Assembly: GCA_041691135.1 (NCBI GenBank)
Contig: JBEPVF010000007.1
Span: 1-64,000 of the forward strand
DNA: 64,000 nt
Source of the DNA: Candidatus Peribacteria bacterium
Lineage (GTDB): Bacteria; Patescibacteriota; Gracilibacteria; Peribacterales; Peribacteraceae
Direction: 5' to 3'
Part shown: positions 1 through 40,963 of the stretch, piece after piece
Numbering within the stretch: position 1 is the first letter of the stretch
Layout of the letters: every line of letters starts with the position of its first letter
Translations under genes and position numbers: made by a program
The notes under the pieces: model-generated
The model's database searches: none
What the model was told of the DNA's origin: nothing
The model's input: only the letters and a program-made list of their open reading frames with translations

Positions 1-329
1 TTGTCTCCCCGCGACAAGAAAAAGAACCAAAAAGAAGCACACCGCCTATGACCCACCTCGCCCTGCTGTCGCGCCTATGGGCATGCGACAGCAGGGCTTG
101 TAACCACTTATCCCCACCACATAGGCGGAGGGGCTGTTCCCTGGAATAGCGAACGTGCGAAGAGGTTGGGCGGCCTCTAGCCGCCTGGGCGTAGTGGAGA
201 GAGCTTCATTGGATAAAACACACAGAGCACGCACCTCCCTCTCCCGGCAGGTCTTTACTATTCAAGGACGAGCAGACGATCACCACTCCCTTTACGGCCT
301 GGGAAGGAGGGAGAGGGCCGGGGTGAGGG
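1..329. repeat. Structured modular intergenic repeat family R1, copy 1 (5' truncated by window edge)
   Basis: Shares GACAAGAAAAAGAACCAAAAAGAAGC, CCGCCTATG...CATAGGCGG, GGCGGC-CTCTA-GCCGCC and the GGGAGAGGGCCGGGGTGAGGG tail with copies at ~18430, ~36750, ~40640. Confidence 0.9.
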
Positions 330-18377: not shown

Positions 18378-18427
18378 GCTTTCACCTTTACCTTGGGAGC
18401 GGATCTGTCACCCTTCACCCTCACCCG

Positions 18428-18831
18428 CAGCAGCAGCCGTCCCCGGCTGCGGTGTCTGAACTATTCTCCTACACGAACAGTATCAGTCACCACTGGTGTT
18501 CTTTTTCTTGTCTCCCCGCGACAAGAAAAAGAACCAAAAAGAAGCGCACCGCCTATGACCCACCTCATGTCGATGGAGCGCCTATGGCTTGCTCCATCGA
18601 CATTCGTACCCACTCATCCCCACCACATAGGCGGAGGGGGTCATTGTCTGGAATAGCGAGCAGGCGAAGAGGTTGGGCGGCCTCTAGCCGCCTGGGAGTA
18701 GTGGAGACAGCTTCATTAAACAGTACACAAATACATCTCCCTCTCCCGGCAGGTTTCTGATGTTCCATGACGAACAGACGCTCACTACTTCCTTTGCGGT
18801 ATGGGAAGGAGGGAGAGGGCCGGGGTGAGGG
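18428..18831. repeat. Structured modular repeat R1, copy 2
   Basis: Same conserved blocks as copy 1; variable stem ATGTCGATGGAGC/GCTCCATCGACAT. Confidence 0.9.
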
Positions 18832-32853: not shown

Positions 32854-33199
32854 ACACGGTATCTTCCCGCGAGCATATCGCTCGTTCCAGCTCGACTGGG
32901 GCTTGGATATGCTCCGGCATCCGGTGACGGGTGATGTGCTGTCTCGTCAGATGCCGTACGATCACGATAAGCATGTTTGCTACATCCGTATCCTCCATAC
33001 TCGTGGGGGATGGAAAGCGCCGACCGTCTCTTACCGATTCCTCCCACGAATCGGCTTGGGTCAGGACGTCTCTAAAGGCGATCTCTTCCCGGCACACTGG
33101 AAGTTCGATCCCTACGAGCAGGAAAGTACGGTGGCGGCAGTGTCGACAGTTATTGTGACCACGACTGCTGTGCCGATGGGTGGTTGGGCGATGGACTGA
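32831..33199 (+). CDS. Hypothetical protein with an HPVTG/HWKFDP domain
   Basis: HPVTG…FPAHWKFDPY; GAGGAGG SD before GTG. Confidence 0.8.
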   Translation: MTSIKLVEHGIFPRAYRSFQLDWGLDMLRHPVTGDVLSRQMPYDHDKHVCYIRILHTRGGWKAPTVSYRFLPRIGLGQDVSKGDLFPAHWKFDPYEQESTVAAVSTVIVTTTAVPMGGWAMD

Positions 33200-33215
33200 G
33201 AAAGGAGAATCCGCA

Positions 33216-33515
33216 ATGCAACGAGTCTTCACAGACTGGTATAGGCCTCGTCAGATGATCCAGGGAATCGGGCTTACTTTCCATCCCATCGTGGGCTTGG
33301 AACTTAAGGACCTGGTCTATCATGCCATGGACGGTCGTTTGTCTCTTCGGAATCCAGGGAACTGGCTCATGAAGCAGGGCCTCTCTCCCTCAGCGTGCGA
33401 AGTCATCGAGGAAATCTACTTTCCATGCATCACCGACGGAAGGGATGACTACACTGTGGGCAGCCCATACCCGCAGCACTGGAAGTTCGATCCCTTCACA
33501 GGTGAACCTTTGTGA
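33216..33515 (+). CDS. Hypothetical protein with an HPVTG/HWKFDP domain
   Basis: HPIVG…YPQHWKFDPFTGEPL; AAGGAG SD. Confidence 0.8.
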   Translation: MQRVFTDWYRPRQMIQGIGLTFHPIVGLELKDLVYHAMDGRLSLRNPGNWLMKQGLSPSACEVIEEIYFPCITDGRDDYTVGSPYPQHWKFDPFTGEPL

Positions 33516-33523
33516 GGAGAACA

Positions 33524-33835
33524 ATGCACAGACGACGTTTTCGTGTCCCCTATCGTGCTGCCGAGCTCAATGCCGGCGTCACCATGGCGTACCACCCGGT
33601 GACCGGGCGCAAGCTCCGGTCACTCAGCTACTGCGATCGATGCTGTTGTTACTACTTCATCGAGCGTGAGTATGAGCCCGGCCTTTCGATTTTCGGTCTT
33701 GATGCGACGGTTACCGAAACGAAAGTATATCTGCCGATGATTAGTGTCGGCCAAGGCGTCGATGCCGATGAGCTCTACCCGGCTCACTGGAAGTTTGATC
33801 CGTTCCTCGGAGCATTGATCAATGACTCCGTGTGA
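33524..33835 (+). CDS. Hypothetical protein with an HPVTG/HWKFDP domain
   Basis: HPVTG…YPAHWKFDPFLG; GAGGAG SD. Confidence 0.8.
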   Translation: MHRRRFRVPYRAAELNAGVTMAYHPVTGRKLRSLSYCDRCCCYYFIEREYEPGLSIFGLDATVTETKVYLPMISVGQGVDADELYPAHWKFDPFLGALINDSV

Positions 33836-36747: not shown

Positions 36748-37114
36748 CAGCAGCAGCCGTCCCCGGCTGCGGTGTCTGATTGTTAATCAAACACATTCTT
36801 CACACGCAGAGCGCCGTAACTCGGCGCGGTGCTGAGGTGTTTGCCTGCACAAAATTTTTTCAATCGCTCAGGGTGTTCTTTTTCTTGTCTCCCCGCGACA
36901 AGAAAAAGAACCAAAAAGAAGCGCATCCGACTTCGCCTGCGGGCTACGCCGGACAGGCCGCCTCTATGACCCACCTCACTTCCTTGTCGCGCCTAACGGT
37001 TTGCGACAAGGAAGTTCGTACCCACCTATCCCCACCACATAGGCGGAGGGACTGTTCCCTGGAATAGCGAACGTGCGAAGAGGTTAGGCGGCCTTTAGCC
37101 GCCTGGGTGTAGTG
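36748..37114. repeat. Structured modular repeat R1, copy 3 (with nested insertion)
   Basis: Same blocks; variable stem ACTTCCTTGTCGC/GCGACAAGGAAGT; extra TCCGACTTCGCCTGCGGGCTACGCCGGACAGG. Confidence 0.9.
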
Positions 37115-37206
37115 AAGGGGGTCCTCGGATTCATCGGCGCCCTCGGCACCGTCGGATTCCTCATTAACAAACCCTCTTCCACTCTGCTACCATCCCCTGA
37201 AAAACC

Positions 37207-40135: not shown

Positions 40136-40642
40136 GTGATCCTCTCGTTGGTGTTAGCGGCATCGGAAAACAACGTGATTGGCGACAGCCAGGCAGCGAA
40201 CCATGCTATTCCGTGGCATCTGCCGAACGACTTCAAACATTTTCGTGATCTCACCAAGGGTAAGCCGGTGATCGTGGGACGCAAGACGATGGAGAAGATT
40301 GGACGATTACTTCCAGGGCGGCGAAACATCGTGATCACCCGCGGCGATGCAGTGCCGTTCGAAGGAGCGGAGCGCGCAGGTTCATTAGAGGAGGCAATCG
40401 AGTTGGCCAAGCAGGGGAACCCCGAAGAGATCTGTGTGATTGGTGGCGGCGAAATTTACCGTCAGGCGCTGTCGATTGCGGATCGGGTGTATCTGACACG
40501 GGTGCATGCGACAGTGGAGGGTGATACGACTTTTCCGGGGTTAGATGATGCGTGGAAGGAAGTTTCTCGCGAAATGCATAGTGCCGATGAGGAGCACAAG
40601 TATGCGTATACGTTTTTGGTGTTCGAAAAAAGAGAAAAGTAG
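40136..40642 (+). CDS. folA: Dihydrofolate reductase
   Basis: NNVIG, IPWHLPNDF, GRKT, LPGRRN, IGGGEIY, GDTTFP. Confidence 0.96.
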   Translation: MILSLVLAASENNVIGDSQAANHAIPWHLPNDFKHFRDLTKGKPVIVGRKTMEKIGRLLPGRRNIVITRGDAVPFEGAERAGSLEEAIELAKQGNPEEICVIGGGEIYRQALSIADRVYLTRVHATVEGDTTFPGLDDAWKEVSREMHSADEEHKYAYTFLVFEKREK

Positions 40643-40911
40643 AGCGCCGTCTCTCGGCGCGGCTCTGAGGTCTTGGCCTGCACAAACTTTTCCAATCGCT
40701 CAGGGTGTTCTTTTTCTTGTCTCCCCGCGACAAGAAAAAGAACCAAAAAGAAGCGCACCGCCTATGACCCACCTCGCCCTGCTGTCGCGCCTGTGGGCTG
40801 GCGACAGCAGGGCTTGTAACCACTCATCCCCACCACATAGTCGGAGGGGTGTTTGCCTGGAATACCGAACGTGCGAAGAAGTTAGGCGGCTGTAGCCGCC
40901 TGGGAGTAGTG
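40642..40911. repeat. Structured modular repeat R1, copy 4
   Basis: Same blocks; stem GCCCTGCTGTCGC/GCGACAGCAGGGC. Confidence 0.9.
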
Positions 40912-40963
40912 AATGGGTCCTCGGATTCCTCGGCGCCGTCGGTTCCCTCGGGTTTCTCCTACT

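Follow-up and report, generated by a model that had tools for sequence, protein, structure and literature searches.

A dispersed structured element of a Peribacteria genome with a probable pseudoknot and triple helix at its end and an orientation that follows replication

The first 64,000 nucleotides of contig JBEPVF010000007.1 from a Candidatus Peribacteria bacterium (assembly GCA_041691135.1), hereafter the window, hold four copies of a dispersed, structured repeat whose end is, judging from covariation, an H-type pseudoknot with a triple helix. The host genome (G000; 1.74 Mb, 92% complete), whose contig C7 begins with the window, carries about 30 copies of the element; other G-numbers denote comparison genomes and L-numbers individual loci examined. 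The copies display covariation, a modular make-up with reassortment of the modules, a strand bias, and gain and loss at orthologous sites. The reading that we favour, with somewhat less than even confidence, is that of a non-autonomous multi-copy structured element of the kind seen in the extension of TwoAYGGAY, which spreads at replication forks and for which the transposases associated with repetitive extragenic palindromes (REPs), known as RAYTs, are the likely motor here. Copy 2 is laid out as follows (window coordinates).

18427..18452, + strand: REP type A, a GTAG-type hairpin (GCAG here), single and not an inverted doublet
18453..18497, + strand: fixed-length linker from the last REP to the core, with a small hairpin at 18484-18495 inside
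18498..18534, - strand: triple-helix duplex, in which 5 of 15 pairs change on both sides; in minus-strand order, spacer and pyrimidine tract Y2 (18534-18522), loop, purine tract R (18510-18498)
18536..18544, - strand: third strand, tract Y1, the mirror of Y2 around a GGTTC spacer
18518..18547, - strand: short pseudoknot helix, 18545-18547 pairing with hairpin-loop positions 18518-18520
18549..18634, - strand: outer stem, in which 18549-18557 pair with 18626-18634 around an asymmetric, G-rich internal loop
18567..18603, - strand: variable 13-bp stem with an apical CC-loop-GG motif and a conserved ACGA and GAGG bracket
18676..18704, - strand: 5' hairpin GGCGGC/GCCGCC, the approximate 5' end of the core
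18737..18831, + strand: BoxC-like G-rich module, which matches a repeat beside a DUF559 gene

On the minus strand, a pyrimidine tract precedes the 15-bp hairpin and mirrors its 5' arm around a 5-nt spacer. Exact triplex motifs of this design number 23 in the genome, every one of them in this element, and none occurred in three shuffles. The mirroring was followed through 21 distinct variants from G000, its relatives and viral contigs, selected on the hairpin alone (45 of 283 spacer hits). At positions 4-7 from the spacer, C in the third strand was mirrored in 19 of 20 cases and T in 53 of 53; the shuffles mirrored C in 6.4 cases on average and 13 at most, and a direct-repeat reading of the third strand fits at best 8 of the 20. 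The family set gave comparable counts (C 12/14, T 32/33). Immediately ahead of the third strand, two bases covary with the first positions of the hairpin loop, which indicates an H-type pseudoknot. More specifically, the first knot pair is Watson-Crick in 24 of 25 variants (C-G, G-C and A-T) and T-G in one (shuffle mean 11.2; 0 of 20,000 as high), while the second is Watson-Crick in 21 of 25 (shuffle mean 14.1; 4 of 20,000). Thus the "fixed 15-bp hairpin" of a preliminary description of this DNA does exist, but it appears to belong to a pseudoknot with a triple helix, and it is probably the minus strand that folds.

In an H-type pseudoknot the first loop crosses the major groove. If the minus strand is the one that folds, this geometry accommodates U·A-U and C·G-C triples; folding of the + strand would turn the purine tract into a minor-groove loop, for which an exact mirror is unneeded. 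Read on the minus strand, the intact variable stems contain three G-U and no A-C pairs, and the wobbles of the spacer helix stand at 3 vs 1 for that strand; these wobbles, though few, lean toward the minus strand as the folded form. According to the available text of Holder et al. (PMC4666352), pyrimidine-type triplexes occur in RNA and purine-type triplexes do not. As far as sequence can tell, the folded form is probably the minus strand as RNA.

A BLAST search of G000 with the element returned 47 merged intervals, 25 of them with both core anchors; further copies are cut by contig ends. The variable stem pairs at 13 of 13 positions in 19 of the 25 copies, has three wobbles in one and has one or two mismatches in three, while the remaining two are a collapsed stem and a non-pairing chimera of two alleles. 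In a set of 17 copies (15 from G000 without insert and two from G004), 94.9% of 787 cells are paired, and both partners have changed in 17 of 47 pairs, the variable arm accounting for 12 of the 17, counts that are inflated by the kinship of the copies; none of 500 shuffles was paired as highly, and slid controls were 40-56% paired. The outer stem is 96% paired, but seven of its nine pairs are invariant in this genus, and neither it nor the 5' hairpin holds a pair changing on both sides in the 17-copy set. Compensated outer-stem variants were seen by eye across the family; RNAalifold recovered this stem incompletely where alignments have gaps. The 5' hairpin is confined to this genus and absent from the family copies inspected.

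The other three copies of the window are the following.

1..329, - strand: copy 1, core and BoxC-like module, truncated by the contig start
36748..37162, - strand: copy 3, with REP A (36748-36772), REP B (36806-36829), a core holding a nested insert at 36927-36957, and a 9-nt repeat tail (37122-37162)
40639..40958, - strand: copy 4, with REP B (40639-40662) overlapping the folA stop, core and 9-nt repeat tail

All four lie in one orientation where the preliminary description had placed them, and their 13-bp stems (60-97, 18567-18603, 36978-37015 and 40776-40813) each pair 13/13, with arms that differ from copy 1 at 8 and 6 positions by our count. Stop codons on the + strand precede three copies, as had been claimed (18377, 36735 and 40642). 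The assertion that the stem always pairs perfectly is accurate within the window and reaches only 19 of 25 copies genome-wide, and the enclosing stem, taken for a fixed scaffold, is indeed found, but with one mismatch in copy 4 and a 32-nt insertion that breaks it in copy 3.

The orientation of the element is strongly biased. Of 22 triplex hits in G000, 21 have the + strand of the window form on the G-rich strand when the skew is corrected for codons, and 18 when raw skew is used; among 26 core-motif hits, one of them probably due to chance, the corresponding numbers are 23 and 20. The genes of this genome are unbiased by strand (686 vs 650). Five relatives exhibit the bias as well (21/22 raw, 18/22 corrected), as does one Pseudomonadales genome with the end module (8/9). 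The direction of neighbouring genes is divided 11 vs 5 in G000 (p = 0.21) and 9 vs 8 in the family; with no tie to gene direction, the orientation of the element follows replication and not the neighbouring genes. The G-rich strand is the lagging-strand template and the strand that displays the GTAG of the REP. Y1 transposases act on the lagging-strand template according to the available portions of PMC6006769 and PMC3971601.

Three proteins of G000 exceed the cut-off of NF047646 (NCBIfam, REP-associated tyrosine transposase). Their genes (G000:C1:268373, C11:30505 and C5:61831; L004, L002 and L003) each lie between inverted REPs, and these REPs are the same hairpins, REP A and REP B, with which the element begins on the + strand; the REP A hairpin of copy 2 recurs as the inverted pair around the gene on C1. 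A RAYT gene flanked by the third type, REP C, was not found in G000. Away from the RAYT genes there are 43 REPs, of which 35 lead into a core, seven meet contig ends and one has a linker only. The distance from the last REP to the core is 41-44 nt in 24 of 24 copies, regardless of REP type. REPs are otherwise single or in direct tandem, and the inverted pairs are three, each around a RAYT gene, so that the REPIN-like nature once proposed for the element does not hold. The relatives G001, G004 and G014 have 4-6 RAYT matches each; no paper on RAYT systems in Patescibacteria came up in a literature search. The search for linked genes that had been advised was productive, as RAYT, DUF559 and GIY-YIG genes are all tied to flanking modules; for the suggested IS110 link, PF02371 had no match in the genome (92% complete).

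Presence and absence at orthologous sites reveal that copies have been gained and lost within the genus. At the site of copy 3, a core with another stem is present in G004 and a REP alone in G001, and G003 has nothing; the site of copy 4 carries a coreless REP doublet in G001 and G004 and is vacant in G002 and G003. At seven sites with a core in relatives, the orthologous stretch of G000 is without a visible core, and one of these keeps REP, linker and tail. At G000:C9:19673-19770, REP B and linker are joined directly to the 9-nt repeat tail with no core between; the orthologous site in L326 carries a core, and the G000 site is either a deletion or an empty site. A DNA run that was available as contigs only contains two joints, which are switches between repeat copies and not excision.

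At family level, a minus-strand core model matched 89 of the 149 genomes other than G000 (E up to 0.01), in many cases over the end module only, and none of 134 genomes from other families of the class (E up to 0.001). The exact two-anchor pattern was found only in G000 among 401 genomes of the class, a set to which G004 does not belong. The end module alone is more widespread and occurs in viral contigs behind unrelated 5' domains; of ten named records carrying the conserved end motif, six are labelled Candidatus Peribacteria. Rfam, a check that the preliminary description had recommended, returned no match at the gathering threshold in the window or in the 20 of 52 viral loci scanned, sub-threshold noise only on copy 2 (E up to 10), and only tRNA, rRNA and noise on 15 family loci. 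A metagenome scan gave 119 17-mer matches, none of which passes the element filter or aligns beyond 36 nt. Two viral matches to the genus motif were both rejected as chance, and 120 loose viral matches were mostly chance, only those bearing the hairpin having entered the triplex variant set.

According to the mechanism that we favour, the minus strand, most likely in RNA form, would adopt a fold made up of a long stem, interrupted by a G-rich internal loop and bearing an inner stem that can be exchanged, and then the H-type pseudoknot, whose first loop would form its U·A-U and C·G-C triples in the major groove. The replication fork would be the place where new copies arise, and the lagging-strand template would receive the + strand, on which the REP shows its GTAG. 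RAYT enzymes, by acting at the REP with its fixed distance of 41-44 nt, would be the likely motor in this genus, recombination between copies would shuffle five old stem alleles, and the stem would be a spacer that presents the apical loop, not a guide. Several observations weigh against this mechanism. The core and its strand bias occur where a Y1 transposase was not found (0 matches in G339, G074, G167 and G343); of five family genomes with the core, four are without a Y1 match, two of these being single-contig assemblies, and reverse transcriptase was not found in three of five core genomes (G339, G014 and G004). Because the core persists without either enzyme, RAYT cannot be the general motor. 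Furthermore, forks expose the other strand, the one that folds being the leading-strand template, and transcription yielding it as RNA would run head-on to the fork. Near copy 2 there is no sigma-70 promoter-like site, neither an excision product nor a clean empty site was seen, and TwoAYGGAY in another Pseudomonadales genome has no strand bias (7/13). The copies are also related to one another, and all counts therefore overstate the independent evidence.

A serious though unlikely alternative is that the element functions as folded single-stranded DNA only, its orientation being kept by selection against a stable fold on the lagging-strand template, with the REP, BoxC and GIY-YIG-type repeats as passengers. 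The bias would be accounted for, as it tracks replication and not transcription and persists without Y1 transposase or reverse transcriptase, and small palindromes have been inserted in element stems in several genomes. GNA triloops are stable in DNA. In TwoAYGGAY elements they show enrichment on the strand that folds (9 vs 2), but the Peribacteria family lacks such enrichment (7 vs 7, about 5.7 expected). A pseudoknot with major-groove U·A-U triples is, moreover, an RNA-type design, as in telomerase RNA, and selection alone leaves the fixed REP distance unexplained.

It is rather improbable that the element is instead a domesticated RNA module, in which read-through transcripts or transcripts of its own end in a 3'-shielding, ENE-like triple helix while the apical loop binds a host protein. 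The latter part recalls the Csr/Rsm sponge that was proposed for TwoAYGGAY; the AYGGAY loops, however, are absent here. A gene ends into 20 of 21 copies, 22 of the 44 family sites at which both neighbouring genes were called have them tail-to-tail, copy 3 has been kept at one site in two species, and the tract order U, U, A is that of ENE elements. Nevertheless, the folded strand is not preferred in the read-through direction, copy number and sites turn over within the genus, and the replication bias is left unexplained. A bolder extension of our own reading, which we regard as speculative, is that these are phylum-spanning RNA-based mobile elements with a telomerase-like 3' pseudoknot and triple helix, which would copy themselves at forks through a host or still unidentified enzyme and carry swappable apical cargo (AYGGAY hairpins in Pseudomonadota, the variable stem here), the REP and RAYT systems being secondary, either as hitchhikers or as boosters.

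The variable stem occurs as five alleles among the 25 copies (10, 8, 3, 3 and 1), and no arm is matched exactly, over 13 nt, at any other place in the genome. The copies combine stem alleles, triplex tracts, REP types and tails in differing ways, both common stems occurring, for example, with both tract types; such mixtures indicate recombination between copies. In relatives, at least 11 other stems of 6-9 bp stand inside the same brackets (GACGA before, GAGGAG after, CC-loop-GG at the tip), G004 carries two longer variable stems, and short family forms are without a variable stem. Since there are only five alleles with no genome match, and since the stem is missing in some relatives' copies, it is probably a structural spacer and not a guide; the "variable slot" suggested earlier, in the sense of a guide-like role, is unsupported by a genome that lacks a target. 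A stem that carries information, either as a guide or as the template from which, in the manner of UG27 arrays, a short cDNA hairpin flanked by conserved motifs would be copied, is accordingly very unlikely, even though the sequence-free central stem, short conserved brackets, asymmetric loop and pseudoknot resemble the UG27 units in the available part of the preprint that describes them (bioRxiv 10.64898/2026.09.22.753630). Beyond the small number of alleles, the copies are dispersed and not arrayed, no neighbour recurs among 87 flanking open reading frames (three pairwise hits in a pairwise comparison), reverse transcriptase is missing from three of five genomes, and both arms are locked in duplex. 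An ordinary BIME-like mosaic of REP and BoxC, its palindromes repaired by template switching with no selected fold, is scarcely credible and already largely refuted by the three-way covariation: the flanking modules are known repeat types and the copies include one slippage-type collapse and one chimera, but template switching copies the complement and not the mirror and so cannot yield third-strand or pseudoknot covariation, the core exists without REPs in other genera, and a direct-repeat origin fits at best 8 of 20. Two further candidates were set aside. A k-turn or hammerhead reading of the ACGA/GAGG bracket was dropped by eye (wrong partners, wrong topology), and a small-protein gene was rejected, as the frames opened by the ATG of the core range from 25 to 100 codons and shift from allele to allele, and many family copies have no such ATG.

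The flanking modules have counterparts elsewhere in the genome. The G-rich tail agrees at 24 of 26 aligned columns with the repeat beside a DUF559 gene (G000:C8:53394), and the BoxC-like tail has a G-rich mirror head with a long insert between the arms. Five stand-alone BoxC-like modules with a long insert occur (C12:22862, C12:44017, C2:257961, C3:163 and C3:103397), and ahead of three of them stands another G/C-rich hairpin, similar to the one that follows the DUF559 gene on C11. The insert of copy 3 is identical at 24 of 25 positions to the palindrome beside a GIY-YIG gene. Stand-alone GIY-YIG genes at G000:C3:14038 and C3:96322 lie directly behind tRNA genes, and one of the two has behind it a remnant resembling a tRNA and containing a palindrome insert. 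Degenerate 9-nt tandem repeats are found both as element tails and alone (window 25785, 37119-37162 and 40915-40958), with 20 matches genome-wide and a weak strand bias.

Additional observations concern other parts of the genome and collection. An IS200/IS605 TnpA gene lies between short GC-rich hairpins at G000:C8:12924-13331 (L001), and near it, at C8:10387, is a reverse transcriptase match of 350 aa in which a YxDD pattern detected no such motif. Contigs C6, C15, C20, C24, C26, C27, C29, C32 and C35 have a GC content of 56-61%, compared with 51-54% in most contigs, and hold no core; they may be islands or foreign bins. In the window, three 53-nt look-alike stretches at 33059-33801, spaced 382 and 308 nt, are probably a repeated protein motif in an unannotated gene. 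Six loci of the viral collection (L034, L062, L083, L119, L120 and L129) have a triplex hairpin 250-400 nt ahead of a purine-strand gene, two of them with a protein start that we take to resemble ArdC/DUF1738; inverted CTTGAC/GTCAAG boxes in viral-collection loci suggest a single-strand promoter of a conjugative leading region. At L371 (G020:C32) and L393 (G103:C9), two different triplex-ended elements lie close by on opposite strands.

These findings extend TwoAYGGAY-type elements to Patescibacteria in a form that Rfam does not detect. With respect to the main text of the TwoAYGGAY preprint (bioRxiv 10.64898/2026.09.22.753630), which is without the words "triplex", "lagging", "replichore" and "Patescibacteria", the triple helix with three-way covariation and the strong replication orientation are new. 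A literature search whose coverage left out subscription journals and bioRxiv supplements gave no description of the element in Peribacteria or of a triple helix in it. As nearly every REP is fused to a core at one distance, the movement of non-REPIN cargo by RAYT becomes directly testable in vitro, and the end module, at 50 nt, is of a size suited to probing or structural study.

In the telomerase RNA pseudoknot and the MALAT1 ENE triple helices, a U-rich strand lies in the major groove of a U-A-rich helix. The end of the element shares with them the tract order and the U-rich third strand, a likeness of design, while differing as a bacterial dispersed repeat with no known protein partner. 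A possible link to the R200 repeat of P. fluorescens was traced as far as a table entry.

Among bacterial repeats, the BoxC, PIT and TM-ECO triplex repeats share with the element the hairpin with a mirror tract and the intergenic position, so far as the available text of Holder et al. 2015 (PMC4666352) describes them, and the + strand tail of the element is of their G-rich kind. BoxC is there a class II purine motif of 36 nt, which RNA is unable to form, whereas the core triplex of the element is A/T-rich, of class IV on the folded strand, set in a pseudoknot and attached to a 200-nt structure. With the REP, BIME and REPIN repeats and their RAYTs, as described in the accessible parts of PMC3116915, PMC3337134 and PMC6006769, the element has in common GTAG-type hairpins identical to the RAYT flanks and an extragenic position mostly after gene ends. 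In contrast, its REPs are nearly all fused to the core and form no inverted doublets, and the core occurs without REP or RAYT in other genera. The reverse transcriptase ncRNA units of UG27, in the portion of the preprint available (bioRxiv 10.64898/2026.09.22.753630), likewise have a sequence-free central stem between conserved motifs and a pseudoknot, but the element has no array, linked reverse transcriptase or accessory genes, and few alleles; the two reverse transcriptase matches in G000 are on C8 and C28, where no core was found.

The closest relative is the extended TwoAYGGAY. TwoAYGGAY itself is Rfam RF01731 (PMC2864571, in the text available), and its extended form, in the accessible part of the same preprint (bioRxiv 10.64898/2026.09.22.753630), is largely confined to Pseudomonadota and combines a long basal stem with a pseudoknot at the 3' end, short repeats on the upstream side and REP arrays at a constant position downstream. 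Both are dispersed, multi-copy and intergenic, and the element shares each of these structural features, with its REPs at 41-44 nt in 24 of 24 copies; the pyrimidine-spacer-pyrimidine-purine end lies on the same strand in both, and the long family forms of the element also bear two hairpins on the stem. The element differs in having no AYGGAY loops, a pseudoknot helix of only 2-3 bp and a Patescibacteria host, and in lacking divergent doublets, no two of 25 cores lying within 2 kb. RF01731 had no match, at E up to 5, in G000, G339, G074, G014 and G153, and none in the window or 15 family loci. Conversely, 30 TwoAYGGAY loci were fetched from 8 of 81 Pseudomonadales genomes and 29 examined: seven match the strict spacer pattern just 3' of the Rfam hit and none on the other side, and by eye about 16 of the 29 carry the end module, with a longer covarying knot helix, while four genomes are without it. 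At L435 the end module follows TwoAYGGAY on its 3' side, read on the strand of the Rfam model, and a REP of matching polarity lies downstream. In this comparison the minus-strand core model gave six matches (E up to 0.055), all over the end module and four directly behind the Rfam match. Of the preliminary description's "undescribed" element, the structured, non-autonomous and multi-copy character therefore stands, but the architecture has a described relative. Under the definition used by Rfam the element falls outside TwoAYGGAY, although it works like the extended form; nor is it a REPIN, and its likeness to BoxC is limited to the tail.
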